Below are positions 17,480-55,548 of a stretch of 55,548 bases of DNA, piece after piece (the first letter of the stretch is position 1; each line of letters begins with the position of its first letter). Source of the DNA: a virus; UHGV virus genome UHGV-0016284; one strand, written 5' to 3'. Both the position numbers and the translations under genes were made by a program. Below the pieces are notes generated by a model. The model saw only the letters and a list, made by a program, of their open reading frames with translations, was not told the origin of the DNA and did no database searches.

Positions 17480-19297
17480 TCAATGGTGAAATAAACCTTT
17501 AACCTTGCTAAAGAATCCGTCTTCTGGCTTTTTATCGAGCCGGTACAGTAATTCTTTTACTTTGTCTTGCAATGCCATTATCAGCTTACGATAACGTTCA
17601 TGATTGCGCTGTTGACGCTGTTTCAGGTCGCCCATGTACCGTTTTTGTGCTGCCCGGCGTTGCATGTTGCGAGCAATCAGTTTGTTATATCTGTCTGATA
17701 GTTGGTTATAGCCAGATTGTAAGATGTTCACATTATTTTGCAGTTCCAGTTTATCATCCTCAAGTTCTGCCACTTTAAGCTGATAGCCCTTGATAACTAG
17801 AGCCTTGTTGCCTGCCTCCTGTTGTTGCACTTTGATTATTTCCTTCGCTTCTGTCAGATCTGCACGAAGGTCGTTGATTGTTTGTTTGTCTGCCGCAGCT
17901 TTCGCTTTTGCGTCTTCGTCATTTGCAGCGTTGAGTTTTTGGCGTAGTTCGCAATTAGTTTTTACCAGGTTGTCGCGCTCACTTTCCAGCTTCTGGCGTT
18001 TACCCTGTTCGTCACCAAATGCCTTATTCGCCTCGCTGTATTGGTGTTTCCAGTAGTCAACGCGTTGCTGATAGTTGTCGCGATCTTCTCTCGCTATGTT
18101 GAGCACTCCATGTAATTCCTTGATTTGTCCTTCCAGCGTTTTTACCTGGCATTTAAGATCTCCCACCTGTTTGCTATCTGTTTGCTGCGCAATAGCCGCG
18201 CTGATATGGTTGTCTTTAAATTTGCGAAAGGCCACCGATAAATCAACCCGATCCTTTTCCGCCCCTATACGTGCAACTATCATCCCTGCTATCTCAAACG
18301 GCGCATAGCCTTTTTTGATCTGCATGTCACAGTGTTCAGTGCAATAGATGTAACCAGGAAGTTTATTCAGGCTTTCGATGCGGTGGCGCAATTCGTCATC
18401 GTCAACACCATAAGCCGAAGCAATGTCCATCAGATTGATTTCATCTGTGTCATTAACGCGAACATCGTAACCGTGGAATTTAAACGCTCTAGGTAACTTC
18501 TGTTCCGGCGGTTCAGTGTTAATTTCTATTTGCTTCATTTCTTCACCTTCATAATAACGCTGTTTAATGTGTTCCGCTTCCTCTGGTGAGATATAATCAG
18601 GGAAGTTATTTATTTGTTTGCCGAAATACTTGATCTCACCCTGGATGCGCGCCTTTATTGCGTCGTTGATGTTGTTGAAACAACCAAGATTGTGAGTCAT
18701 TCCATCAGCTGAAATATACGCCCTCCATTTATTAGTCACTTTGTCCAAATAAATACCTTTGATTCCGCTATCTCCAAAAGGCTGACGTTTTACGTTAATC
18801 TCACTGAGTGTGATTAATTTCAGGTTTTCAATTTTCACGCATGAGTCATCAGCGTTTTCTATTACATAACCATCAGGAATAGGGCCGTTAAACATTTCCC
18901 ACACAATGCGATGCAAGTAATATTGGGCGTGATTTATTTTCAACCTAAATTTTTTAGCTACTTTTGCTCTGTCTTCACTCCCGCGAATAATATCGCCAGG
19001 TTTGATACGATTTTTCCCCACTCCCCGCGCCACCTTACTGACCAGATAACCATCAGGATGATAATCAAATAATTCAGGCCAGTTTTCCGCACACTGGCTG
19101 CAATCAGCGTACTGAATATCGCCAGCTTCCACCGCTGTTATTTCCTTCCAATAGCCACCGGCCACCATGCGTACAAACTCGCTTTCTTTACCCCAATGAT
19201 TCCACGTTTGATATTTACGCTTCCGCATAAACACCATTCCTTCATCAATTTTTGCAAACAATTTACTTCCTCTTATCGATATAAAATATCTAGACAT
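17480..19297 (-). CDS. multidomain HNH endonuclease (HNH + AP2-like + Bro-N/KilA-N-like) with long C-terminal coiled coil
   Basis: YLHRIVWEMFNGPIPDGYVIEN.DD..VKIENLKLIT (HNH_3-like); IKGIYLDKVTNKWRAYISADGMTHNLGCFNNINDAIKAR (AP2-like); FKFHGYDVRV..EINLMDIASAYGV (Bro-N-like); about 230 aa heptad-rich tail. Start set to ATG at 19297 (GAGG ribosome-binding site); track start 19345 is TTG. Confidence 0.6.
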   Translation of the reverse strand: MSRYFISIRGSKLFAKIDEGMVFMRKRKYQTWNHWGKESEFVRMVAGGYWKEITAVEAGDIQYADCSQCAENWPELFDYHPDGYLVSKVARGVGKNRIKPGDIIRGSEDRAKVAKKFRLKINHAQYYLHRIVWEMFNGPIPDGYVIENADDSCVKIENLKLITLSEINVKRQPFGDSGIKGIYLDKVTNKWRAYISADGMTHNLGCFNNINDAIKARIQGEIKYFGKQINNFPDYISPEEAEHIKQRYYEGEEMKQIEINTEPPEQKLPRAFKFHGYDVRVNDTDEINLMDIASAYGVDDDELRHRIESLNKLPGYIYCTEHCDMQIKKGYAPFEIAGMIVARIGAEKDRVDLSVAFRKFKDNHISAAIAQQTDSKQVGDLKCQVKTLEGQIKELHGVLNIAREDRDNYQQRVDYWKHQYSEANKAFGDEQGKRQKLESERDNLVKTNCELRQKLNAANDEDAKAKAAADKQTINDLRADLTEAKEIIKVQQQEAGNKALVIKGYQLKVAELEDDKLELQNNVNILQSGYNQLSDRYNKLIARNMQRRAAQKRYMGDLKQRQQRNHERYRKLIMALQDKVKELLYRLDKKPEDGFFSKVKGLFHH

Positions 19298-19464
19298 TAT
19301 TAATACCTCGCATTTAGTAATTTGCTTTTGCATGGATACAATCAATAAAACGCGCTACAACGCAAAAATCCCACCGCGTAACCCATTTGCACAGGTTGCA
19401 GTGTCTTATTGCGTCAGAGGCGCTTTCAGGTGGCTAATTTTTGATTTACAGACTGGTATGAAGG

Positions 19465-19566
19465 TTATGGATTGACCAGAAGGAACAAACCGCCGAACAA
19501 AGCGACGTTAACAGCGATTGCCGCAGCGATGGCAAAAGCCAGGGCGAAAACGTGTTTACCGTCCAT
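19465..19566 (-). CDS. hydrophobic minipeptide (33 aa, one predicted TM helix)
   Basis: MDGKHVFALAFAIAAAIAVNVALFGGLFLLVNP; GAGAGG ribosome-binding site upstream; intergenic location between the HNH and initiator genes. Confidence 0.3.
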   Translation of the reverse strand: MDGKHVFALAFAIAAAIAVNVALFGGLFLLVNP

Positions 19567-19703
19567 TTTAAAATCCTCTCTGTAACGCTCTATAACGAGC
19601 TAATCGCAAAAAGGTAAGCAAGTGTAGCACCATATGCGATTTAGCTCGCTGGTGAGCTTGTTTTGTGGGTGATTTTGGATTTTTGGTAATGCCGAATGGT
19701 TGT

Positions 19704-20750
19704 TTATGGGAAATTCCGTGTCTTGCGGAGCGTTTCGGGCTTCAGCAGAAAATCTATATCAGCCCGCCAGCCAGTGTTGTTGTTGCCAAAGTAGAAGTCG
19801 GGGGCATGCTTGTTGAAGTACTCGAAGTAGTTGATGAATGCTGTGATGTTTTTCTCCTTCATGCTGTCAGCCAGTCTATGTATCTTTCTCTCCAGATCGC
19901 GATCAAGCTCTGCATACGGCAGTGAGTCGCCGAATGTGTTGTTGTAGGCTTCTACTACCTCAGCAGCATCAATAACCGCGCCTTTTTGTTTCCATTGATT
20001 TGCCTTATCAAGTTTCTCAGCAAACAGCGTCTTCCTGCATATATTGAGTGGCGACAACTCGCCAGGTTCTTTCCTCCACACGCTCGCCACCCAATCAATG
20101 ACCAGTTTGATATCGTCAGGTGTAAAGCCGTTTGCTAGCAGCGTAACGAAAGGGCGGCTATCCCTGCTTTTCCCGCCGAGTCTGTCGCGGAAGTAGCTAA
20201 GCATATCCATTGCCTTAATCTGGTTTTGCGAAAGACCATTATCAACCACACTTTCCCCCTGTAGGGGGATTATAGGGGGTATATCTTTTTCTTTTTTTAC
20301 CTTGTTATTATTTATATCTACCTTGTTAGAGTCCCCCTCTAGGGACTTTGACTTGGCAAATGAAAGTCCCCCTCTAGGGACTTTGACTTCTTCTGCGGGG
20401 ATGGGTAAAAGTCCCCCTCTAGGGACTTTGACTTCTTCTGCGAGAATGAAGTCTTCAATGCTCATATCTTCGTTTTTTTGTACGACCTCCTTAAACTTTT
20501 CACTGAACCTGTAGATGTTCGAGGTGTTATATCTTCTTTTTCTGGATAGTACCCCGTATCTTTCCAGGACTTTTATTGCTGCAATGACGGAATCCCTTTT
20601 TATGTGACACCTTCTGGCTAGCGTGTCTATGCTCGGGTAGCATTGGTTTTTATCGTGGTCAGCATACCAGGCCAAAGTAATGAGGACGTAACTTACATTG
20701 CGATCATCAATAAGAAGCCTGAACGCGCGATCCTGTAGTTCGTATGCCAT
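19704..20750 (-). CDS. replication initiator (lambda O-like organisation, origin iterons inside the gene)
   Basis: N-terminal HTH-like domain (PSIDTLARRCHIKRDSVIAAIKVLERYGVL); central linker EEVKVPRGGLLPIPAEEVKVPRGGL encoded by DNA iterons; first long gene of the leftward early operon. Confidence 0.6.
   Translation of the reverse strand: MAYELQDRAFRLLIDDRNVSYVLITLAWYADHDKNQCYPSIDTLARRCHIKRDSVIAAIKVLERYGVLSRKRRYNTSNIYRFSEKFKEVVQKNEDMSIEDFILAEEVKVPRGGLLPIPAEEVKVPRGGLSFAKSKSLEGDSNKVDINNNKVKKEKDIPPIIPLQGESVVDNGLSQNQIKAMDMLSYFRDRLGGKSRDSRPFVTLLANGFTPDDIKLVIDWVASVWRKEPGELSPLNICRKTLFAEKLDKANQWKQKGAVIDAAEVVEAYNNTFGDSLPYAELDRDLERKIHRLADSMKEKNITAFINYFEYFNKHAPDFYFGNNNTGWRADIDFLLKPETLRKTRNFP
20285..20440. 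repeat. origin-like iterons (3 copies of a 25-bp unit) with adjacent AT-rich tract
   Basis: agtccccctctagggactttgactt at 20330-20354, 20365-20389 and 20410-20434, each with an internal inverted repeat (agtccc/gggact); AT-rich ctttttctttttttaccttgttattatttatatc upstream. Confidence 0.55.
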
Positions 20751-20758
20751 ACATCACC

Positions 20759-21163
20759 TCAAAACGGCGCTGTTCTCTGTTGGAATTTATCCAGAAAATC
20801 ATCGCTACCATCAAGTTCTAATGCGTAAAACATATCGCAATCACCCTTGCCTGGCTTATCATGCTTGATGGCTATGATGTCCTTAATTTCTTTGTCTTTT
20901 ATGTCCTTATATGGCCCGCAAAATACAGGGTGATACGGGAAAACACCTTCGCGTAGTTTTTGGTATAAGTCAGATCTCGTTATTCCGGCCCACCAGGCTA
21001 ATCTAAACAGATTGTCTTCGCGGAACACCACATAGTAAGTGTTGTGGTATTGGCAATCGGCAAGATACATGGCGATCAGCCTGTCTTCCGCTTTCCAGTA
21101 ATAAGTCTTATCGATGATATCCCTTGCTGTAGCAGCAAGATTGATTGAGTCATCGTTAATCAT
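20759..21163 (-). CDS. hypothetical protein (134 aa), first gene of the leftward operon
   Basis: ATG at 21163 preceded by AGGAGA; track version starts at TTG 21241. Not Cro-like in size or sequence. Confidence 0.5.
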   Translation of the reverse strand: MINDDSINLAATARDIIDKTYYWKAEDRLIAMYLADCQYHNTYYVVFREDNLFRLAWWAGITRSDLYQKLREGVFPYHPVFCGPYKDIKDKEIKDIIAIKHDKPGKGDCDMFYALELDGSDDFLDKFQQRTAPF

Positions 21164-21380
21164 TCTTGTGTCTCCTATGGTTAGAGTGAACGCGCGGGCG
21201 GGCATCCCATTAGCATTAGATAGCAGTGACTGACCGCTCAACAGATCCCGCCGTTGCGTGATATTTGTTTTTCGCTTCGCAGCGACACCGGATTTTTAAA
21301 GAGCTTAAGTGGTTGGCCTTTTGTGCTTTCCGTTATCTTTTTTCTTGCATCATTGCAACTATGGCCTTACCTTGTTTGCA

Positions 21381-21425
21381 AGTTTACAGAATGGCGTTGA
21401 CAGGTCAAGGCTTTAAAAATACGTT
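21381..21425. promoter_or_regulatory. divergent overlapping promoters with palindromic -35 region (immunity-region control)
   Basis: Plus strand: TTGACA (21397-21402), 17-bp spacer, TACGTT. Minus strand: TTGACC (complement of 21403-21408), 16-bp spacer, TAAACT (complement of 21381-21386). The two -35 elements form the palindrome TTGACAGGTCAA. Confidence 0.4.
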
Positions 21426-21467
21426 TTGTGACTTGTATCAAACTTTTTTAGGTTATAGGGTAGCGAC

Positions 21468-22115
21468 ATGAAAACAAAATGGTATGACTTAGCAAAACAA
21501 CTCATGCGGGCGCAGGGCATGAGCCAGGATTCATTGGCTGATCTCATGGGGATAACCAAAGGTGGCCTTTCGCACTGGCTGAACGGTCGCCGTGAGCCAA
21601 ATCTTGAAGATATTGCGCGGATTATGCGGGCGCTTGGGCGTCGGCAGTTTACTGTCACACATGACGGGATGGTTATCGATGATTCTGTTTCTAACACTTT
21701 ACCGGGAGCGCCACCGCGTGATTTAGGCAGTTACCCGGTTGTTGACTGGAAGGATGTAGCAAACAATATGGAAGGCATACGCCGATCAACATTGCCACAT
21801 GTTACTACTAACGTTATTTGTTCGGATGATAGTTATTGGCTGGTAGCTAAAGGTGAATCAATGAACGCACCGCAGGGGTTAAGCATCCCTGCCGGTACTA
21901 TGATACTTATTGACCCGCACGCGCCAGCTATTGATGGTAAACTGGTTATAGCTCAACTCGAAGAAGGGCAAATACCGACGTTTAAACAATTGATTATTGA
22001 TGGAGGCCGAAAACTTTTGCGTTCACTGAATCCGTTGTATCCGCCGATCCCTATGAATCCAGAATCAAAAATCATTGGCGTGGTTGTTGATGCGAAGATC
22101 GTAAACCTGCCATAA
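21468..22115 (+). CDS. cI-like repressor (HTH_XRE N-terminus, LexA/S24 autopeptidase C-terminus)
   Basis: N-terminal HTH (MSQDSLADLMGITKGGLSHWLNGRREP); C-terminal S24 fold with GESM (Ser nucleophile) and downstream Lys (TFKQL). Confidence 0.8.
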   Translation: MKTKWYDLAKQLMRAQGMSQDSLADLMGITKGGLSHWLNGRREPNLEDIARIMRALGRRQFTVTHDGMVIDDSVSNTLPGAPPRDLGSYPVVDWKDVANNMEGIRRSTLPHVTTNVICSDDSYWLVAKGESMNAPQGLSIPAGTMILIDPHAPAIDGKLVIAQLEEGQIPTFKQLIIDGGRKLLRSLNPLYPPIPMNPESKIIGVVVDAKIVNLP

Positions 22116-22120
22116 ACATT

Positions 22121-22148
22121 AGCCGCCTGGTGGCGGCTTTTCTTTGTT
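22121..22148 (+). terminator. rho-independent terminator after the repressor gene
   Basis: Hairpin agccgcc-tggt-ggcggct followed by tttctttgtt. Confidence 0.65.
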
Positions 22149-22239
22149 CGAAAAAACACCAAAACGTAAACAGAAAACGCTATTTATTGTTTAAATATCA
22201 ATAGTATATAAAATATTTTAAAAAAGTATACAAAATGGA

Positions 22240-22268
22240 TTGACTCGGTGTTTTACGGGGCGTATATT
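22240..22268 (+). promoter_or_regulatory. strong sigma70-type promoter for the rightward operon
   Basis: TTGACT (22240-22245), 17-bp spacer, TATATT (22263-22268). Confidence 0.55.
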
Positions 22269-22312
22269 GCGAGTCAAAGGAGGTAGCAAGGCAGGGAAAG
22301 GGAAGGTTATTT

Positions 22313-22349
22313 GCTCTTTAACAATCTGGTCAGCCGCTGGAAGTGCGGC
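22313..22349 (+). promoter_or_regulatory. nut-like site: boxA-like sequence plus boxB-like hairpin
   Basis: GCTCTTTAA (22313-22321) resembles boxA (CGCTCTTA); hairpin GCCGC-tggaagt-GCGGC at 22333-22349 resembles boxB. Confidence 0.35.
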
Positions 22350-22406
22350 AATTAACGAAGATGATTTTTTTATTAAGTATCATCAAGGATATACGGAGAT
22401 CAGATT

Positions 22407-22697
22407 ATGAGCGTTACAATCATGTATGGCAAATGTGACAGTAAACTGAATGCCAGGGAACGCAGAAAAATAAAAAGAGAAAACGAAAGAAAATCATCAC
22501 CTGCAATTAATAAAACAGACAATGTGGATAAAGCTATTCGATTTGCAAACGAGGAAAGGTGCAAACCAAATAGCATTAAAGAACGTCGCAAAGGATCAGT
22601 AAAATGGTATATGGAAAATGAAAGCGGCAGCTACTACCACGCAACGCAACCACGCCATTTAGGGGAAAAACCCCTGGATAAAGTCCGCTATCATTAA
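22407..22697 (+). CDS. basic protein with arginine-rich motif, candidate N-like antiterminator
   Basis: First gene after the promoter and nut-like site; KLNARERRKIKRENERK near the N-terminus resembles an arginine-rich RNA-binding motif. Weak assignment. Confidence 0.35.
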   Translation: MSVTIMYGKCDSKLNARERRKIKRENERKSSPAINKTDNVDKAIRFANEERCKPNSIKERRKGSVKWYMENESGSYYHATQPRHLGEKPLDKVRYH

Positions 22698-22727
22698 TAC
22701 AAAATGTAAACATTCGGAGGTGACATT

Positions 22728-22850
22728 ATGGTTATTCAGGCGCTTCAATTCAAACTGGCAGTAGCGGAAATGCTTCATGATGCCGAAATGTGGAGCGCCG
22801 CGAATAAAGCCTTATACGTAGTGTTAACAGCGAAGGAGATTAAAGAGTGA
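22728..22850 (+). CDS. small hypothetical protein (40 aa)
   Basis: ATG at 22728; stop overlaps the erf start (GTGA); below the track cut-off. Confidence 0.25.
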   Translation: MVIQALQFKLAVAEMLHDAEMWSAANKALYVVLTAKEIKE

Positions 22851-23500
22851 AAACAGAGTTACACAAAAAACTGTGGACGATTCAGCAAACGCTGAACGCG
22901 CCGAAAAATCAGCGTAATAATTTTGGTGGATATAATTACAGGTCGGCGGAGGATATTTTAGAGGCGGTTAAACCACTGCTTCAAAATATCACGCTGACTG
23001 TTAGTGATGAAATTGTCCTGATCGGCAATCGCTATTATGTGAAAGCAACGGCTACACTAAGCGACGGCGAGGATGAAATTGCGGTAACTGCTTACGCCAG
23101 GGAAGAAGAAAGCAAGAAGGGCATGGATTGTTCACAGCTAACTGGCGCGACATCAAGTTATGCGCGTAAATACGCGTTGAACGGATTGTTCTGTATTGAT
23201 GATGCGCGAGATCCTGATACTGACGCATACGCTAAGCAGACAGGCCAGCAGCCTCGCCAACAGAAAAACCCACCAAAACAACAAACTAATCAGAAACCAC
23301 AGCAGCAGAAAGCGCCGCCAAATCCTGATGAAGTGTTAGCGCGTTTCTGTGATGCGGCAGCGAAAGCGCCGGACGCTAATAAGTTGCGCGAGATATTCGG
23401 GAAGTGCTGGAAGCTACTTCCTAAAGATTCAGAGCAGCAACAGAAAGCAAAAGACTGTTATGACATTCGCTTAAAAGAGCTTAAAGGGGAGATCAGTTAA
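22847..23500 (+). CDS. erf: Erf-family single-strand annealing recombinase
   Basis: Aligns by eye with P22 Erf: LNAPKNQ.N.FG.Y.YRS.EDILE.VKPLL......SDEIVLIG.RYYVKATAT..DGE......A.AREEE.KKGMD..Q.TGATSSYARKY.LNGLF.IDDA.D.DT. Confidence 0.8.
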   Translation: MKTELHKKLWTIQQTLNAPKNQRNNFGGYNYRSAEDILEAVKPLLQNITLTVSDEIVLIGNRYYVKATATLSDGEDEIAVTAYAREEESKKGMDCSQLTGATSSYARKYALNGLFCIDDARDPDTDAYAKQTGQQPRQQKNPPKQQTNQKPQQQKAPPNPDEVLARFCDAAAKAPDANKLREIFGKCWKLLPKDSEQQQKAKDCYDIRLKELKGEIS

Positions 23501-23919
23501 TGAGCTTAAATTCAATCACGCTGGGCGGTAATATCGGGAATGATATGGAGGTTCGCTACACGCAAAACGGTAAAGCTATTGGTAGCTTTCCGTTGGCTGT
23601 AACGAATGGCTACGGTGATAATAAACGGACTATGTGGATCACTTGCCTGGTATTTGGCGAGCGTGCGGAAAAATTAGCGCCACATATTCGTAAGGGTGGA
23701 AAAATAGTGGTAAGCGGTCGCCTGGATGTTCGGCAATATGACCGGAACGACGGCACGAAGGGAACTGCGGTAGAAGTGGCGGTTAATGAGTTCGAATTCA
23801 TGAACATTAACCAGCAAGGCCAGCAGCAAGGCCAGCAGCATAAAGCGCCTCCGCAGCAGCAGAATAATAACGGGAATAATCCGCCTCCGATGGACTTCGA
23901 TGACGATATTCCTTTTTAG
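23500..23919 (+). CDS. ssb: single-stranded DNA-binding protein (SSB)
   Basis: OB-fold N-terminus (MSLNSITLGGNIGNDMEVRYTQNGKAIGSFPLAV...), Gln/Gly/Pro-rich linker, acidic C-terminal tail DFDDDIPF. Confidence 0.85.
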   Translation: MSLNSITLGGNIGNDMEVRYTQNGKAIGSFPLAVTNGYGDNKRTMWITCLVFGERAEKLAPHIRKGGKIVVSGRLDVRQYDRNDGTKGTAVEVAVNEFEFMNINQQGQQQGQQHKAPPQQQNNNGNNPPPMDFDDDIPF

Positions 23920-23935
23920 AATCAATGTGTTAGCG

Positions 23936-24214
23936 ATGAGTGATTATCTAAAAACGCCACCGCCACCGCGAACAAAAGAGCAAGTTTTAAAAGAAGCCCG
24001 TGATCATATCGATCATGGGCTTTTTTTATGCGGCACGGCAGCGGAACGGATGGCAAAAAGATTTAGTGACCTGTACGCAAAACAAATATGGTTCGACAAC
24101 TGGCAGGCAAGTTTTTATCCGCTGCAAAGAAAACCGGATATGCATTGGCCTGAATATGTCGATCCACGTATGCGCAAATATCGCGGGCGTATGGGCCAGG
24201 TTATTAACGATTAA
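23936..24214 (+). CDS. hypothetical protein (92 aa)
   Basis: ORF in operon; start set to the internal ATG after the SSB stop. Confidence 0.4.
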   Translation: MSDYLKTPPPPRTKEQVLKEARDHIDHGLFLCGTAAERMAKRFSDLYAKQIWFDNWQASFYPLQRKPDMHWPEYVDPRMRKYRGRMGQVIND

Positions 24215-24228
24215 TGAGGTATCAAATC

Positions 24229-24453
24229 ATGATCGAAGAAAAGGAAATTGATAAAGAAATGCCTGATGGTCGTGATGAGCTTATTTGTTTTGATGGCGGC
24301 CTGTATGAGTTCGATACGTCGGCTGGGTGGACGGATAAGTGGCCGCAATTAACAAAACAGGAGCTTTTAAGCAGAAACAGTTTTGGTAATGACAAAGAAC
24401 GGCTGGCTAATAACAAATGGCTTGATAAGTTAATTGCGGAGGGTGGCAAATGA
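24229..24453 (+). CDS. hypothetical protein (74 aa)
   Basis: GAGG ribosome-binding site before ATG 24229. Confidence 0.4.
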   Translation: MIEEKEIDKEMPDGRDELICFDGGLYEFDTSAGWTDKWPQLTKQELLSRNSFGNDKERLANNKWLDKLIAEGGK

Positions 24454-24563
24454 GCTTTGCAAAAATTGCCGCATTGCTTGCGGCTTTATCTATCGCTGTG
24501 CTGTATCTCAGCGTATCTCTTTATATCACGGTAGCGATTATTAAACTCATTACTAACATGTGA
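24450..24563 (+). CDS. hydrophobic minipeptide (37 aa)
   Basis: MSFAKIAALLAALSIAVLYLSVSLYITVAIIKLITNM; ATGA overlap with the upstream stop. Confidence 0.35.
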   Translation: MSFAKIAALLAALSIAVLYLSVSLYITVAIIKLITNM

Positions 24564-24571
24564 GGCCAATC

Positions 24572-24691
24572 ATGAAAGTCGGTAAGGACATTGTGACTGT
24601 CGCGTTTTGCATTATTTGCTTCCTGTTTGTGGTTGTTTTTTGTGGCGCATTTGCCGCGCTGGTTAGCCTTATTTTCAGGGGGTTACTGTGA
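24572..24691 (+). CDS. hydrophobic minipeptide (39 aa)
   Basis: MKVGKDIVTVAFCIICFLFVVVFCGAFAALVSLIFRGLL; GAGG ribosome-binding site upstream; stop overlaps the next start. Confidence 0.35.
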   Translation: MKVGKDIVTVAFCIICFLFVVVFCGAFAALVSLIFRGLL

Positions 24692-24963
24692 TGAAAACAT
24701 GGGATGCAAAGGCTGGTGATCTTGTCGTGTTGCCTGAATATCGTGATGACCCTGGCCTGGTTGTACTGAATAAGATGTGTAACGATCTCGAACGTCCATT
24801 ACTGGTTAAATACCTGGACGGAACAATCATAGAGCCGCGTTTCTTTGATGATATTGAACTGAAGGCCCGCAATGTTCGCGTTAAGCCGTTCCGGGCTTAT
24901 GTTGAAAACCACTGGCGGAAATTGTTTGCCGGACTGAATGGGATGTTTGGCGTATGGCTATAA
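24691..24963 (+). CDS. hypothetical protein (90 aa)
   Basis: ORF in operon (alternative GTG start at 24688). Confidence 0.4.
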   Translation: MKTWDAKAGDLVVLPEYRDDPGLVVLNKMCNDLERPLLVKYLDGTIIEPRFFDDIELKARNVRVKPFRAYVENHWRKLFAGLNGMFGVWL

Positions 24964-25145
24964 AATTAGTGAAAGTTAAAGACCTGAAAGGCGGCGAAAA
25001 GATCCGCACATGGTATGGCTATAAATTTATTGTCGCTGCCTTTTCTTTCGGGCCAGGGGGTCAAGTAACATTATTTGATGAAGAAGACGACGAGGTGGGT
25101 AAATGGCATCTTGAACAATATGTTGAGGTGTTAAATGAAAATTAA
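24954..25145 (+). CDS. hypothetical protein (63 aa)
   Basis: ORF in operon, overlapping neighbours. Confidence 0.35.
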   Translation: MAIKLVKVKDLKGGEKIRTWYGYKFIVAAFSFGPGGQVTLFDEEDDEVGKWHLEQYVEVLNEN

Positions 25146-25467
25146 ATTACATAAGGCCTATGATAGCGAAACAAATAAGCTATCACTATTTATTGTGTTC
25201 GAACGCCGGATCGTGTGTGTACCGTGGGCGCGTCGCTTTAATGATGCAGCAGGGCGGCGGCAGTTCGCGTTAGACATGTTGTTACGCGGTTGCGGCCTTA
25301 TGCGCCCACTATCTGATTTAAAACGGATGATGCCTGGATCGTTCGGTCAGATTGATGAAATCGAAGTAAGCCAGGACGAGCTAAAACGGGCGCGTGATTT
25401 GTTCCTTTCAAGCGAAGGAAACCCGTTTAATTCAGAAACTGAAATGAAATGGCATCACCCACTATAA
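25135..25467 (+). CDS. hypothetical protein (110 aa)
   Basis: ORF in operon. Confidence 0.4.
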   Translation: MKIKLHKAYDSETNKLSLFIVFERRIVCVPWARRFNDAAGRRQFALDMLLRGCGLMRPLSDLKRMMPGSFGQIDEIEVSQDELKRARDLFLSSEGNPFNSETEMKWHHPL

Positions 25468-25480
25468 AAGGATAAATATC

Positions 25481-26101
25481 ATGAACGACATCAAAACAGC
25501 TTATTCACTTGGCAGCAATGGCATGTTAATCACTCGCTACACTGAAGATGCAAGTTTTCATGAAGTGGAAACGAAGGATTATCACGAAGTATTAAAAGAT
25601 ATGGAAGCTGGCGCGTATGACGCTGATTTAAACCTGGCTATGCAGATTGTTGATATTATGATGGACGCGTCGATCCGCGATTATGTGTCTTTAAACGCTG
25701 AAGAAAAAACTGCCGTAGCTCGTTATGTCTTCTGCCTTGCTTTCGTAAAACGCATGGAAGAAGAATTTGGACGAGTACCAGTGCCGGAAGAAATTGACCC
25801 ACTGGCGTTCGGAAGTGCTGTTATTTTCCCGTTAGATGAAAATCATACGGGTAGCGTTGCGCTGTATTCTGTGCGCGGCGTAATGAAAAAAGTATTCGAG
25901 GCTAAAGCGTTACAGAAGTGTATTGATGAAGGGCACAAAGAGGAAGAAGTAAAGGCGATCATGCCATTATTTTACGGCGAAATGGTTGGCAATAATATGC
26001 GCGCAAATGATTTAGGTGTACAGGCAGCTATAGCTGTGCTTAATGACGCGCGGAAAGACGCACAGCTAGTGCCTGAACCTGAAAAACGCGTACTTCATTA
26101 A
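25481..26101 (+). CDS. hypothetical protein (206 aa)
   Basis: ORF in operon; no motif recognised. Confidence 0.5.
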   Translation: MNDIKTAYSLGSNGMLITRYTEDASFHEVETKDYHEVLKDMEAGAYDADLNLAMQIVDIMMDASIRDYVSLNAEEKTAVARYVFCLAFVKRMEEEFGRVPVPEEIDPLAFGSAVIFPLDENHTGSVALYSVRGVMKKVFEAKALQKCIDEGHKEEEVKAIMPLFYGEMVGNNMRANDLGVQAAIAVLNDARKDAQLVPEPEKRVLH

Positions 26102-26104
26102 CAT

Positions 26105-26120
26105 TGTGATTGCGATCACA
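26105..26120. promoter_or_regulatory. perfect CRP-consensus-type palindrome TGTGA-N6-TCACA
   Basis: tgtgattgcgatcaca at 26105-26120 in a 100-bp intergenic gap; further TGTGA half-sites just downstream (tgtgatcgca, ttttgtgaact). Confidence 0.4.
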
Positions 26121-26200
26121 TAAATATACATTTTGTTTTGTGATCGCATGTCCGTTTTGTGAACTGAAATCAAAAGGTTTACGGCGCGGAGGAAAACAAG

Positions 26201-26419
26201 ATGGCCCGCGAATTAATGCTTTATTGCGTTGAGGGTGGCGTAGGCCATGATGCCTATGTCGCAGGGAAAAGCTATCCAGCCGATGAAGTACTTTCTAACA
26301 TGCACTTCCGGGAAAATGAAAGCCGGGTGTCTGTGTGGAAACGGTGCATTGATGGTATTGAAGTTGTAAGTATCGAACGGTATTTAGGCACATTTGATTA
26401 CGGTGTTATTGAGGCTTAA
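26201..26419 (+). CDS. hypothetical protein (72 aa)
   Basis: Strong GGAGGA ribosome-binding site before the ATG. Confidence 0.45.
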   Translation: MARELMLYCVEGGVGHDAYVAGKSYPADEVLSNMHFRENESRVSVWKRCIDGIEVVSIERYLGTFDYGVIEA

Positions 26420-26421
26420 TT

Positions 26422-26514
26422 ATGGACGACACATTGTTTTATATGTGCTGTTGCTGGGGTTTTATTGCCTTATGCCTGTTTATCAGGTGGTTTATTGAAT
26501 ACCATATGAGGTGA
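26422..26514 (+). CDS. hydrophobic Cys-rich minipeptide (30 aa)
   Basis: MDDTLFYMCCCWGFIALCLFIRWFIEYHMR; GAGG ribosome-binding site; packed between two ORFs. Confidence 0.3.
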   Translation: MDDTLFYMCCCWGFIALCLFIRWFIEYHMR

Positions 26515-26517
26515 TAT

Positions 26518-26712
26518 ATGGAACAAAAAACTGATTATAGAATACCTGATAACCTAATATTAGTTGGCATTGGTTTTGGGTGTAGATTTGTATCTGACAC
26601 AAAAGGGGAAATTTATTTAGTGCGCATCATTGATGGCGTTCAGCATATAAGAAGGCTAGGACTTTACATCAAAGCATTCAGAAGAGGTTATTTAAAAGCT
26701 CATGAAATTTAA
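26518..26712 (+). CDS. hypothetical protein (64 aa)
   Basis: ORF with GAGGTGA ribosome-binding site. Confidence 0.4.
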   Translation: MEQKTDYRIPDNLILVGIGFGCRFVSDTKGEIYLVRIIDGVQHIRRLGLYIKAFRRGYLKAHEI

Positions 26713-26905
26713 ACACTATAGGGAATGGAAAATTCCAGAATCAGCAACAAAGGCAGCGCCAGGTAATGTTTCTGGCGTTTATTTTTATATGGATGGCAAA
26801 TGGTATTTCGGCAGCAGGCCGGATCATTTCTATCTCGAGTTATGCAAGCCGCACACATGGGATATTAAAGAGCGCGTGAAAGATGGGGTAATTGATGAGG
26901 TTTAA
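26702..26905 (+). CDS. hypothetical protein (67 aa)
   Basis: ORF in operon. Confidence 0.4.
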   Translation: MKFKHYREWKIPESATKAAPGNVSGVYFYMDGKWYFGSRPDHFYLELCKPHTWDIKERVKDGVIDEV

Positions 26906-26910
26906 ATCCT

Positions 26911-27144
26911 ATGGCTTTATTCAATATGTCAGAGCCGCAATTTAACGCCGTAAAAATTGCCGCCCGCGCCGCGCTTTCGGCCTGCAAAGCGGAGGTAGAA
27001 AAGAACGGCTACAGCGATAAAGCCACGCGGCTGATACTCGACAAGCATTATCGCAAGGTCGCCCCGCTAATCAGTATTGAGCGTTTTGTGTGGTTGGTGG
27101 GGTATCTGAATAACCGCTGGGGAACAGATCAGGATTATTTCTAA
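26911..27144 (+). CDS. hypothetical protein (77 aa)
   Basis: ORF in operon. Confidence 0.4.
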   Translation: MALFNMSEPQFNAVKIAARAALSACKAEVEKNGYSDKATRLILDKHYRKVAPLISIERFVWLVGYLNNRWGTDQDYF

Positions 27145-36246: not shown

Positions 36247-36738
36247 ATGATTAGCCAATCGCTGAAAAACAAGATTGTTGCGGCGGCGGCTGGTGGGGCG
36301 ATCGCTATTGCGGGGGCGATGATAAAAGATCTTGAAGGCGTTGAGTATAAGCCATACAGAGATGTCATCGGTGTTTACACGATATGTTATGGACACGTCG
36401 GAAAAGACATCATGCTTGGTAAGACTTACACGCAATCAGAATGCGATGCTTTGTTAAATAAAGATCTACACAAGACCGCAAAAGCGATTGACCCATATAT
36501 CAAAGTCGAAGTATCAGATTTTACCCGCGCTGCACTTTATTCCTTCGCCTATAACGTAGGCGCAACCAACTTCAAAACATCAACCTTATTAAAGCTACTC
36601 AATGACGGCAAGAAATCGGAAGCGTGCGCACAGCTTAAGCGCTGGGTATACGCTGGCGGTAAGAAGTGGCAAGGCCTGGTTAACCGCCGCGATGTTGAAT
36701 ATGCCGTTTGCGAATGGGGTGAGAAATGGACAAGGTGA
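36247..36738 (+). CDS. SAR endolysin (lysozyme, GH24 / T4-lysozyme-like)
   Basis: Catalytic E-x8-D-x5-T triad in [22 protein letters not shown]; N-terminal weakly hydrophobic Gly/Ala-rich signal-anchor-release segment ([17 protein letters not shown]). Confidence 0.8.
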
Positions 36739-37196
36739 AGACGTTAATCATCGCCGTTGTTGTTTGCATTATTGCCAGCCTTACCGCCGTAACGTGTTAT
36801 TACCAGGGTGAGGCAGCAAGGTTACAGGAAGAAGTCACGGTAACGAAAGGCGCACTGAAAACGGCAAGTAACACTATTCAGCAGATGAAGGAGCGAAACG
36901 CCGAACTGTCAAAACTTGATAAGAGGTATCACGATGAGATTAAAGCTATCAGATCTGACATTGCTGATCTGCGCACTGGTATTGACAATGGCACTATCAA
37001 GCTGCGCGTCAACGCCGTGCCAATGCGAACGGACAGTAATACCGGAGCCGCCAGCCGCATTGATGGAGCCTCCTGTAGACTCACTCCCGACGCTGAATCG
37101 GCTTATCTATCCCTCAGAGAACAACTAAAAACGAAAGACGCTCAGATCACTGGGTTACAGGACTACATAAAAACGCAGTGCTTACGCAAAGAATAA
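36726..37196 (+). CDS. Rz-like inner-membrane spanin
   Basis: N-terminal TM helix ([16 protein letters not shown]), coiled-coil periplasmic domain; overlaps the endolysin stop. Confidence 0.7.
36934..37128 (+). CDS. Rz1-like outer-membrane lipoprotein spanin, embedded in the +1 frame of Rz
   Basis: [26 protein letters not shown]: lipobox LSSC; Pro-rich mature peptide; fully nested inside the Rz gene. Confidence 0.6.
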   Translation: MRLKLSDLTLLICALVLTMALSSCASTPCQCERTVIPEPPAALMEPPVDSLPTLNRLIYPSENN

Positions 37197-38120: not shown

Positions 38121-38189
38121 ATGGTTACTTTCCTGTTAGGTTTATTTATCGGAATGGCTGCGGCTGTAATATTGCTGGTTGGTGAATAA
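38121..38189 (+). CDS. minipeptide 1 of tandem array (22 aa, single TM helix)
   Basis: MVTFLLGLFIGMAAAVILLVGE; GGGGGTGA ribosome-binding site; starts 2 nt after the upstream stop. Confidence 0.4.
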   Translation: MVTFLLGLFIGMAAAVILLVGE

Positions 38190-38193
38190 TGTT

Positions 38194-38310
38194 ATGGATG
38201 ATTATATCATTGCCGGATTGATCGGCATTTCTGTATATCTGGTGGGTTTTATTGCAGTTGCACTAATAAACGCAAAGATCAAGCACTGGGGGGGGGGAGG
38301 GGCAAGATGA
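38194..38310 (+). CDS. minipeptide 2 of tandem array (38 aa); contains a G10 homopolymer
   Basis: MDDYIIAGLIGISVYLVGFIAVALINAKIKHWGGGGAR; GGTGA ribosome-binding site; the G10 tract at 38288-38297 encodes WGGGG. Confidence 0.4.
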   Translation: MDDYIIAGLIGISVYLVGFIAVALINAKIKHWGGGGAR

Positions 38311-38381
38311 TTGACCCGCTCATTATCCTTTCTGCCTGCGTCGCTGTATGGCTGGCTATCATGATATTCATTGAAAGCTAA
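38307..38381 (+). CDS. minipeptide 3 of tandem array (24 aa)
   Basis: MIDPLIILSACVAVWLAIMIFIES; ATGA overlap with peptide 2; GGAGGGG ribosome-binding site. Confidence 0.4.
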   Translation: MIDPLIILSACVAVWLAIMIFIES

Positions 38382-38392
38382 AGGTTCTCATC

Positions 38393-38467
38393 ATGAATAT
38401 TTACGATCTAATCTGGTGGTCGTTGGTCGCCGTCATTATCTATTTCTGGTGGAAGAATGTTGTATAG
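38393..38467 (+). CDS. minipeptide 4 of tandem array (24 aa)
   Basis: MNIYDLIWWSLVAVIIYFWWKNVV. Confidence 0.35.
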   Translation: MNIYDLIWWSLVAVIIYFWWKNVV

Positions 38468-38475
38468 GTGAAAGC

Positions 38476-38556
38476 ATGAACGCATACGAAATGCTATTGC
38501 TGGTGGCTGTTATTACAGTTATTGCCGTTGATTTCTATAGAGGGTTAAAAAGATGA
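38476..38556 (+). CDS. minipeptide 5 of tandem array (26 aa)
   Basis: MNAYEMLLLVAVITVIAVDFYRGLKR; AGGTGA ribosome-binding site. The track ORF 38371..38556 is a probable over-extension from a non-ATG start. Confidence 0.4.
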   Translation: MNAYEMLLLVAVITVIAVDFYRGLKR

Positions 38557-38639
38557 GAGAAGCAGACTTCTTTTGCATAATTATAGTGATCGTCATCGTT
38601 GCGGTGCTTTTAAGCGTTAACGGAATCGCAGGGGGTTGA
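38553..38639 (+). CDS. minipeptide 6 of tandem array (28 aa)
   Basis: MREADFFCIIIVIVIVAVLLSVNGIAGG; ATGA overlap with peptide 5. Confidence 0.4.
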   Translation: MREADFFCIIIVIVIVAVLLSVNGIAGG

Positions 38640-39027: not shown

Positions 39028-39513
39028 ATGGCCCGCACTAAAAAGGCAAAGGCTGACGATAAAAAGCCAGCGGCTAAAAAGGTGGGCCGTCCGCATGGTT
39101 ATACCGAAGAAAAGGCATTAGAGATCTGTGAGCTGGTGGCGGACGGTCAGAGTATTAACAAGATTTCGAAGATGCCTGATATGCCTGCGCGTTCAACAAT
39201 CCTTAAATGGTTCAGAGACGTGCCGGAATTCTCGGACATGTACATGCGCGCGAAGGAAATCGGCTTCGAGGTATTAGCTGATGAGATCATCGATATAGCC
39301 GATGCGGCGGAGAATATCGATAAAGACGAATGCCGCCGCCATCAACTGATGATTGAAACCCGTAAATGGCTATTGGCAAAACTGCAACCGCGTAAGTATG
39401 GTGAACGCGTTACACAGGAGATCGTCGGCAACAGGGAAGAAGCGCCCGTACAGGTAGAAGTCACAAAAGAAGAGATCGCCCGCATCGTTCAGGAAGTAGA
39501 AGATGAGGTGTGA
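39028..39513 (+). CDS. terminase small subunit
   Basis: GRPHGYTEEKALEICELVADGQSINKISKMPDMPARSTILKWFRDVPEFSDMYMRAKEIGFEVLADEIIDIADAA matches the common phage small-terminase HTH family; directly precedes the large subunit. Confidence 0.8.
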   Translation: MARTKKAKADDKKPAAKKVGRPHGYTEEKALEICELVADGQSINKISKMPDMPARSTILKWFRDVPEFSDMYMRAKEIGFEVLADEIIDIADAAENIDKDECRRHQLMIETRKWLLAKLQPRKYGERVTQEIVGNREEAPVQVEVTKEEIARIVQEVEDEV

Positions 39514-54575: not shown

Positions 54576-54604
54576 ACCCCGCGCGAAGCGGGGTTATTAT
54601 TATT
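54576..54604. terminator. bidirectional hairpin terminator
   Basis: ccccgc-gcgaa-gcgggg followed by ttattattatt; the stem is the reverse complement of the one at 5958. Confidence 0.6.
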
Positions 54605-54716
54605 CCATTTCCATTAATGCTATATTTTCTGCTATCGTTTTCCAGTCCAGATCTACAGCATGAACGCCAAATACTATCAATCCCATTATTATTAGCGCCA
54701 AAACTTCTATTTTCAT
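54600..54716 (-). CDS. hydrophobic minipeptide (38 aa)
   Basis: MKIEVLALIIMGLIVFGVHAVDLDWKTIAENIALMEME; GGTGA ribosome-binding site. Confidence 0.35.
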   Translation of the reverse strand: MKIEVLALIIMGLIVFGVHAVDLDWKTIAENIALMEME

Positions 54717-54726
54717 AATCTGTCAC

Positions 54727-54975
54727 CTATAAGTTATCACGCAGATAATTAACGCCCTTATCAGTGACGAATGAATGGTTAACCTGGTTTTCATCCGTCA
54801 TGATGATGAATAACTTTTCCTGTAGGTATTTCGCTTTCGGGTACAGCGTTAAACAGACCTGGTACAGTATCCCGCGCTCAATCAGCAAATCAATAAATTC
54901 GTGCTCATGATAACCGACGAGGCGGGCGGCCTGTTTCAACGTGTACACATAGTCACCGTGATTGCTCCGCCCCAT
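54727..54975 (-). CDS. hypothetical protein (82 aa), possible DNA-binding
   Basis: YTLKQAARLVGYHEHEFIDLLIERGIL looks HTH-like. Tentative. Confidence 0.4.
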   Translation of the reverse strand: MGRSNHGDYVYTLKQAARLVGYHEHEFIDLLIERGILYQVCLTLYPKAKYLQEKLFIIMTDENQVNHSFVTDKGVNYLRDNL

Positions 54976-54984
54976 ATTACCGCC

Positions 54985-55335
54985 TTATTTATCGAAGGCT
55001 GAAAGATTATCAATACAGAAGTCTTTAGCCGCTTTTTCGTATTCGCGTTTTGCTTCTGGATCGTCAGCCGGGAAACCTTTTGCGTGTATTTCACCAGGGC
55101 AAGACTGATCCATAGAGTCTGCAAATTCAACATTGACGTTAAAGTTAATATCTTTCGGGTTCATCTCTTCCACCTTATCCGGTACTTGGACCGGAGTAAT
55201 GTCAAATTCACGAGCGCTAGACCAACAGCGCAGTAATTCACGACCTTCATCACGCGCGGCGTTGTATGTATCGAATAACCCCATGCGCTCCCATTCGCAT
55301 TTATCAGTGAACACTTCTAAGCTGTATTTTTGCAT
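54985..55335 (-). CDS. hypothetical protein (116 aa)
   Basis: Antisense ORF overlapping the upstream gene end. Confidence 0.45.
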   Translation of the reverse strand: MQKYSLEVFTDKCEWERMGLFDTYNAARDEGRELLRCWSSAREFDITPVQVPDKVEEMNPKDINFNVNVEFADSMDQSCPGEIHAKGFPADDPEAKREYEKAAKDFCIDNLSAFDK

Positions 55336-55507
55336 TTTTTGTTATAACCTCCCATTTGGCAGGTTCGATCCTGTATCCCAAAACGCGGTCATCTTCAGCA
55401 AGTAAAAGCGCGTCAGTTAGTGCCTCGCCTTCGTCTTTATACAGAGCTACAGTCATTTCCCTGCCGCCTGACAGGAATACCGTCAACCTCCACACCTTAT
55501 CAGCCAT
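55304..55507 (-). CDS. hypothetical protein (67 aa)
   Basis: GGAGGTG ribosome-binding site before ATG 55507 (track start 55525); the cassette may continue beyond the window end. Confidence 0.4.
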   Translation of the reverse strand: MADKVWRLTVFLSGGREMTVALYKDEGEALTDALLLAEDDRVLGYRIEPAKWEVITKNAKIQLRSVH

Positions 55508-55548
55508 CTCACACCTCCGCGCCATTTTGTTAACCCTGCTTCCTTTTG

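Follow-up and report, generated by a model that had tools for sequence, protein, structure and literature searches.

Candidate single-helix membrane-peptide genes conserved in the mEp021 group of Escherichia coli phages

Small membrane peptides of bacteria and phages

A recognised class of peptides, with fewer than 60 residues and one transmembrane helix, regulates or perturbs targets in the membrane (PMC12648545). Here we analysed five small open reading frames (ORFs), named A to E, in the UHGV virus genome UHGV-0016284, a stretch of 55,548 nucleotides that we call the window and assign to a temperate Escherichia coli phage of the mEp021 or "mEpimmI" group. We propose, with a probability of about 60%, that A-E are conserved genes for single-helix membrane peptides acting as accessory host-envelope factors. 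They belong to a known and abundant class, the small single-helix phage membrane peptides of unknown function, and do not constitute a new kind of system. At least seven genes of this genome encode peptides of 28-45 residues with one hydrophobic helix each, and the purifying selection described below turns A-E from possible ORFs into defined, cheap-to-test candidate host-envelope effectors.

Several described systems resemble A-E in part. Like them, the AcrZ, MgrB, MgtS, CydX and YohP class has at most 50 residues, one predicted transmembrane helix and short soluble ends, is routinely missed by annotation and is expected to bind larger membrane proteins (PMC12648545). However, these proteins are chromosomal and stress-regulated, each with a defined partner, whereas A-E are phage-encoded and share no sequence similarity with them. 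The general features of a small membrane protein (an ORF of at most 50 codons, one transmembrane helix) are found in A-E in the form of an ORF with a Shine-Dalgarno (SD) site, in-frame selection and a predicted helix. The type I toxins Hok/Gef, TisB, Ldr, Ibs, ShoB, DinQ and ZorO have the same length and single-helix build, and some are carried by prophages, but A-E match none of these families, no antitoxin RNA family accompanies them, and A-D lack the ~25-residue, Cys-containing periplasmic tail of Hok.

Among phage proteins, T4 Imm and Sp, HK97 gp15, P22 SieA and the Lpp of mEpimmI phages are membrane-located and accessory, as is proposed for A-E. They differ in being larger or lipoproteins and in being expressed from the prophage, whereas A-D are encoded in lytic early operons and contain no lipobox; again, there is no sequence similarity. 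The HK97 gp15 gene is located in a tail-region moron, as is E in the window. Finally, lambda Kil and Rac KilR are small, non-essential products of an N-antiterminated early operon, encoded beside recombination and anti-RecBCD genes in a setting that recalls that of B-D. Kil proteins are soluble inhibitors of FtsZ and division and not hydrophobic helices, whereas A-E are almost entirely hydrophobic and match no Kil or KilR model in PHROGs or Pfam.

Conservation of the five reading frames

An earlier reading of the letters alone (the original prediction) had picked out five small ORFs with ribosome-binding sites. All five were recovered at the same coordinates and on the same strands, each with an ATG and an SD motif 5-9 nucleotides upstream. 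ORF A (19465-19566, minus strand) encodes 33 residues, MDGKHVFALAFAIAAAIAVNVALFGGLFLLVNP, behind the SD site GAGAGGA at 19574-19580. On the plus strand, ORF B (24450-24563) encodes 37 residues, MSFAKIAALLAALSIAVLYLSVSLYITVAIIKLITNM, with GGAGGG at 24438-24443, and is followed by ORF C (24572-24691; 39 residues, MKVGKDIVTVAFCIICFLFVVVFCGAFAALVSLIFRGLL), whose GAGG at 24562-24565 overlaps the stop of B. ORF D (26422-26514, plus strand) specifies a 30-residue peptide with four Cys, MDDTLFYMCCCWGFIALCLFIRWFIEYHMR, preceded by GAGG at 26411-26414. The fifth, ORF E (54600-54716, minus strand), encodes 38 residues, MKIEVLALIIMGLIVFGVHAVDLDWKTIAENIALMEME, and its SD site AGGTGA overlaps the stop of the upstream gene.

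These ORFs are more than chance occurrences. A census in six frames of ATG-initiated ORFs of 25-60 codons with a hydrophobic 17-residue window yielded 14 ORFs, seven of them with an SD site, namely A-E, 38194-38310 and 38553-38639. None of these seven lies within an ORF of at least 75 codons, and an SD site is missing from all six hydrophobic ORFs that are embedded in larger ORFs (Fisher P = 0.0047). As SD sites are thus confined to the non-embedded hydrophobic ORFs, the five go beyond what chance would produce.

The frames were followed through seven phage genomes, 12 diverse E. coli prophages (chosen among 35 genomes with the B-C locus, out of 5,426 complete E. coli genomes), 40+30+25 IMG/VR contigs and 26 metagenome contigs. 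Selection statistics were computed on unique nucleotide sequences, and allele counts refer to the loci before the metagenome contigs were added. The original prediction had named a lack of conservation as the outcome that would speak against it; instead, the frames are kept and are under purifying selection. A is intact in 18 of 18 aligned loci, and its residues 1-32/33 are encoded on 30 further IMG/VR contigs, with 11 protein alleles. The ratio of nonsynonymous to synonymous polymorphism (pN/pS) in A is 0.13 in frame and 2.14 or 1.97 when the frame is shifted, and its variable columns number 8/6/24 at codon positions 1/2/3 (third-position excess P = 1.6e-4). B is intact in 58/58 loci and 25/25 metagenome contigs and C in 58/58 and 26/26. 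The first 58 loci hold 23 protein alleles of B, with identity down to 49%, and 29 of C, with identity down to 45%. For B, pN/pS is 0.30 in frame versus 1.00 and 1.47 in shifted frames (third-position excess P = 0.018); the corresponding values for C are 0.40 versus 0.78 and 1.38 (P = 0.022). D is present in 55 of the 56 aligned loci, once as a truncated allele of 22 residues, and has 16 protein alleles and a pN/pS of 0.18 versus 0.87 and 2.39 (P = 0.011). E occurs in forms of 38 and 45 residues, both recurrent in 25 IMG/VR contigs, with 19 protein alleles and a pN/pS of 0.22 versus 0.73 and 0.92 (P = 0.0013). We consider A-E to be genuine coding genes because their frames are conserved, third positions vary in excess and in-frame pN/pS is low; it is very probable on this comparative evidence that all five are translated. 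Across the sampled members of the mEp021 or mEpimmI group, A-D are, by these alignments, conserved in nearly all and E in most.

In the prophage of E. coli STEC308, a KilA-N domain gene (locus L016 6358-7071) separates B from C, inserted exactly between the two, and both are retained; D and the 72-residue gene upstream of it are missing from this prophage. In some E. coli prophages, the reading frame that contains A extends upstream without a stop, which has led to NCBI and Joint Genome Institute (JGI) calls of 79-86 residues; conservation of these calls is poor in the N-terminal part and is limited to the last 33 residues, which are A itself. An alternative-frame ORF over B (24434-24544, beginning MRRVANELCKNCR) varies in length among relatives and is missing in some, and was rejected.

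The prediction of one hydrophobic helix per small gene, in the early regions for A-D and in the late region for E, was likewise sustained. The maximal Kyte-Doolittle score over 17 residues is at least 2.14 in every allele, including the B and C alleles at 45-49% identity. AlphaFold2, run on single sequences, folded B into one continuous helix over residues 3-35 (predicted local distance difference test score, pLDDT, 95) and C into one over residues 4-38 (pLDDT 91). In A-D, 26-30 residues are hydrophobic and the tails measure just 2-9 residues. A is a single hydrophobic helix in which N20, G25 and G26 are invariant; the helix of B is rich in Ala and Leu and that of C in Phe, Cys and Val, with F12, C13, G25, A26, A28 and A29 invariant in a seven-allele alignment of C. 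D is hydrophobic and rich in Cys and aromatic residues, acidic at its N-terminus and basic at its C-terminus (RWFIEYHMR). E starts with a hydrophobic segment ending in VHA, followed by an acidic amphipathic tail; from its sequence, this segment is either signal-peptide-like or a membrane anchor. B and C, at 45-49% identity at the extreme, diverge far more than the neighbouring protein of 90 residues (at least 83%), a pattern that would be expected of helices held by hydrophobicity and a few packing residues.

The small genes are tightly packed in part. It had been claimed that several of them overlap their neighbours by ATGA; this is only partly exact. The ATG of B does overlap the TGA of the upstream gene (24214-24453) as ATGA. 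The stop of B lies inside the SD site of C, 8 nucleotides ahead of the C ATG, and the stop of C overlaps the ATG of the next gene (24691-24963, 90 residues) by one base (TGATG). In the 40-residue C alleles of mEp013 and mEp044, this last overlap grows to four bases. D occupies the 98-nucleotide gap between the genes at 26201-26419 and 26518-26712, with spacers of 2-3 nucleotides on either side. A and E do not overlap their neighbours.

Alternatively, translation of A-E might only couple the flanking genes or keep ribosomes on the mRNA, or the ORFs might be filler, and the peptide sequence would then be functionless. The unbroken chain of overlapping stop and start signals through B and C is what one would expect in that case, as are the fast evolution of B and C relative to the 90-residue protein and the lack of a homologue with known function. 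However, an in-frame pN/pS of 0.13-0.40, against about 1 or more when shifted, is difficult to explain for a functionless sequence, as is the preservation of length and hydrophobicity in all alleles, however divergent, and of invariant polar or small residues (N20, G25 and G26 in A; C13 and G25 in C). A and E, moreover, are not coupled to any downstream gene. We therefore consider it unlikely that translation alone is the conserved feature and favour membrane peptides that are selected for their sequence.

Several observations weigh against the proposal of conserved membrane-peptide genes. E is absent from phage MagusPhagus and is less well conserved than A-D, and its start is changed from ATG to ATA in four contigs of one lineage (L104-L107, position ~1501) with the rest of the ORF intact, which points to either a recent inactivation or a start at a non-canonical codon. 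The non-coding flanks of A show about the same conservation as A. The selection test has a modest evolutionary depth (pS 0.26-0.52), as the family is limited to one closely related phage group; among the sources searched, A-E appear only in this group. No model in Pfam, PHROGs, NCBIfam or PADLOC matches any of A-E at E <= 1, and thus no homologue with known function was found. Finally, the mEp021 reference record and the prophage annotations of the Prokaryotic Genome Annotation Pipeline (PGAP) mostly omit A-E.

An exhaustive HMMER search of 1.84 billion representative proteins with D returned no matches, and GTDB species genomes scanned with D and with the neighbouring 90-residue protein contained no relatives. 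Concatenated queries (B+C and A+D+E) against a large protein database retrieved nothing but calls of the same loci that were frameshifted or extended at the N-terminus, which indicates that large protein databases do not hold ORFs this small. Owing to the low-complexity filter, tblastn of B and C against the phage collection returned only the same six phages or nothing. The IMG/VR and metagenome matches show the same synteny or lie on contigs of ~50-57 kb. In the sister genomes, PHANOTATE/Pharokka calls list A-E as hypothetical proteins without further analysis: mEp010_14, _29, _30, _37 and _107 and their counterparts in mEp013, mEp044, mEp515, mEp554 and MagusPhagus are orthologues at the same positions, 76-100% identical. 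PGAP calls C alone, and occasionally (WP_263906574.1, WP_000868625.1). A-D are missing from the reference annotation, mostly from PGAP annotations, and from PHROGs and large protein databases, despite their conservation throughout the group, and A-E illustrate how tiny genes are systematically overlooked by annotation in a prevalent group of gut phages.

Terminators, toxins and lysis proteins as alternatives

ORF B contains a terminator-like hairpin, GCCGCATTGCTTGCGGC, followed by TTTATCT (24468-24484, plus strand). It corresponds to the predicted "TERM_2" of the mEp021 GenBank record MH706966 (L002 6127-6143), which leaves B unannotated. It could be argued that this intrinsic terminator is the conserved element at B and that the ORF is incidental, since the hairpin is GC-rich with a T-run, carries a terminator annotation and lies in an early operon with terminators that are overridden by Gp17 (PMC11893012). 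However, only 20 of the 59 loci, or 9 of 32 nucleotide alleles, have both hairpin and T-tract, whereas ORF B is intact throughout, and the substitutions in B show codon periodicity. Because the hairpin is allele-specific and the ORF always intact, protein coding is the conserved feature at B, and we regard an incidental ORF as highly improbable. The embedded terminator may nevertheless be functional in some B alleles, which would give this segment a dual role.

The original prediction had likened the small ORFs to Kil-like and Hok-like killing or exclusion factors, and this comparison found no support in the tests made here. None of the five peptides matches the Hok/Gef models (HOK_GEF of Pfam, Hok of NCBIfam) at E <= 1, and the searches described above exclude Hok/Gef, Ldr, TisB, Ibs, Kil and known defence effectors as family memberships. 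An Rfam scan of the whole window identified no RNA family and hence no known type I antitoxin RNA. The Hok-like architecture, with ~50 residues, an N-terminal transmembrane segment and a longer Cys-bearing periplasmic C-terminal part, is not that of A-D, which have 30-39 residues and C-terminal tails of 2-9. E alone has a tail of 18-25 residues, and in most alleles this tail has no Cys.

One or more of the peptides, most plausibly stand-alone A or E, could still be toxins of a Hok-, TisB- or Ldr-like type that depolarise the membrane under the restraint of an antisense RNA, with a role in prophage addiction or abortive infection. The size of type I toxins (fewer than 60 residues, one transmembrane helix) is indeed that of A-E, given their hydropathy in all alleles and the helices predicted for B and C, and the very short tails fit the description of these toxins as well (PMC12648545). 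A lies within a 350-nucleotide intergenic region with highly conserved non-coding flanks, and a weak plus-strand hairpin with a T-run (19643-19658) is antisense to and upstream of A. Against such a role, type I toxin models in Pfam and NCBIfam and antitoxin RNAs in Rfam gave no match and no promoter-like site was detected around A on either strand at the scan threshold; a novel small RNA is nevertheless conceivable. B, C and D, moreover, sit tightly packed inside a long operon and do not resemble type I toxin mRNAs. A type I toxin among the five is, in our view, quite unlikely, and the preferred reading remains that of accessory membrane peptides.

Superinfection-exclusion lipoproteins (Cor/Llp and the mEpimmI Lpp) carry a lipobox behind their signal sequence. 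This motif, [LVI][ASTVI][GAS]C in the form used in PMC11893012, is absent from A-E by inspection of their sequences. The Cys residues are preceded by A-F or V-F in C and by Y-M or F-M in D, and A, B and the E allele of the window have no Cys.

Small membrane proteins of phages also include holins and antiholins, and the peptides might be holins, antiholins, pinholin-like proteins or lysis-inhibition peptides encoded away from the lysis cassette. This cassette comprises an endolysin gene (36247-36738) and an Rz-like spanin gene (36726-37196), and the space from there to the terminase gene holds more tiny hydrophobic ORFs (38194-38639), which would suit a role in lysis timing. Nevertheless, endolysin and spanin are 10-17 kb away from A-D, which lie in early operons, and E is located among tail genes; each peptide is one helix with hardly any soluble tail, and no PHROG holin family matches them. 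A function in lysis timing is very unlikely on these grounds, and we retain accessory envelope factors as the more plausible proposal.

Genomic setting and proposed roles

Six Mexican E. coli phages (mEp010, mEp013, mEp021, mEp044, mEp515 and mEp554) and phage MagusPhagus form mEpimmI, a Nus-dependent, non-lambdoid group whose frequency in human gut samples reportedly equals that of the lambdoid phages (PMC11893012). Over 19000-27000, the window is 85-91% identical to these phages at the nucleotide level. A replication-initiator gene (19704-20750; PHROG replication initiation) shares a leftward operon with a helix-turn-helix (HTH) gene, and a cI-like repressor (21468-22115) and the N-like antiterminator Gp17 (22407-22697) are encoded rightward. 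Gp17 is the product of the first gene of a long early operon that continues with erf, ssb and a homologue of the anti-RecBCD gene abc2, then with many genes annotated without function; the abc2 homologue is encoded just upstream. Antitermination by Gp17 was reportedly studied by Valencia-Toxqui in 2023 (Arch Virol), with terminators t1, t2 and t5 of the Gp17 system said to have been verified experimentally. Gp17 acts at nutR1, nutR2 and nutL, and several terminators in the early operon are overridden (PMC11893012).

In this setting, the Gp17-antiterminated operon would yield B, C and D soon after infection or induction, beside recombination and anti-RecBCD functions. B and C would be translated by coupling, with ribosomes passing from the upstream gene through ATGA to B, through the SD site in the stop of B to C, and through TGATG to the next gene, while D would be read as a cistron packed between its closely spaced neighbours. 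A is alone in a ~350-nucleotide interval downstream of the replication-initiator gene, as the last conserved ORF before a variable cassette, and would be read from the leftward replication transcript. Between the tail genes M and L, a moron cluster on the minus strand (54600-55525) ends with E as its last cistron. Directly 3' of E, the GC-rich hairpin CCCCGC-ttcgc-GCGGGG (54577-54593, minus strand) is annotated as a Rho-independent terminator in mEp010, mEp013, mEp554 and mEp021, and as bidirectional and intrinsic in sister records; judged by its sequence and these annotations, it closes the moron cluster as a bidirectional intrinsic terminator. E would be translated from this terminator-bounded moron, and its expression in the lysogen is possible too.

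Once made, the peptides would insert into the E. coli inner membrane as single-pass helices. With such short tails around their hydrophobic residues, A-D could hardly do anything else, and membrane insertion of A-E is probable, although E might alternatively be exported, with its signal-like segment cleaved after VHA. In the membrane, they could oligomerise or dock onto host membrane proteins; the Asn and Gly-Gly that never vary in A would fit this idea, as would the motifs of small residues in B and C. Possible targets are transporters, phage DNA-entry routes, a receptor, the division machinery, the respiratory or energy machinery, or the membrane potential itself, through mild depolarisation. 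These outcomes are drawn by analogy with bacterial small membrane proteins and type I toxins (PMC12648545). We tentatively place the peptides in accessory host takeover or superinfection exclusion, rather than in structural, replication or lysis functions; taken together, other categories are somewhat more likely.

A more specific proposal concerns B and C, which co-occur in 58/58 loci and 25/25 metagenome contigs. They could form an obligate two-peptide membrane module that is core to this newly described phage family, either a hetero-oligomeric pore or a toxin/immunity-like pair, and that would reset host membrane energetics or block DNA entry early in infection. In about one-third of the alleles, translation of B and antitermination by Gp17 would jointly gate the downstream early genes through the B terminator. 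The most divergent allele types of B and C (MKKIAML-/MRVDKNT- and MSMVK-/MKVCKN-) do co-occur, while alleles of the main type are found in mixed combinations, and both genes outlast the KilA-N insertion between them. All of this is compatible with simple linkage, and we hold an obligate module with terminator gating to be improbable.

The 90-residue protein encoded immediately downstream of C (24691-24963) matches no Pfam or NCBIfam model and falls only in PHROG 28396, of unknown function. Several prophages carry it under the PGAP label "toxin-antitoxin system toxin subunit", and the name given to mEp021 gp23 is similar; this label seems unsupported and was not used.

Three further tiny hydrophobic ORFs are located in 38179-38639, just upstream of the gene for the terminase small subunit (39028-39513). 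They are found at 38194-38310 (MDDYIIAGLIGISVYLVGFIAVALINAKIKHWGGGGAR) and 38553-38639 (MREADFFCIIIVIVIVAVLLSVNGIAGG), both with an SD site, and at an internal ATG within 38371-38556 (MNAYEMLLLVAVITVIAVDFYRGLKR); none of the three has a family match. Paralogy among the eight tiny hydrophobic peptides, namely A-E and these three, was considered and rejected (all z < 2.6), and A-E are, on sequence comparison, five mutually unrelated genes.

To the left of A, nucleotide conservation drops off abruptly at ~19340. The cassette slot on that side (17480-19345) varies and holds genes for a zinc-ribbon protein, BRO, a KilAC antirepressor, Ant, Rha or DUF559 in different relatives. On the other side of A, within the replication-initiator gene, an exact 22-nucleotide direct repeat, AAAGTCCCCCTCTAGGGACTTT, itself palindromic, occurs at 20363-20384 and 20408-20429 and encodes the duplicated peptide EEVKVPRGGL. 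By comparison with lambda O, these repeats resemble iterons, or an origin, lying within the initiator gene.

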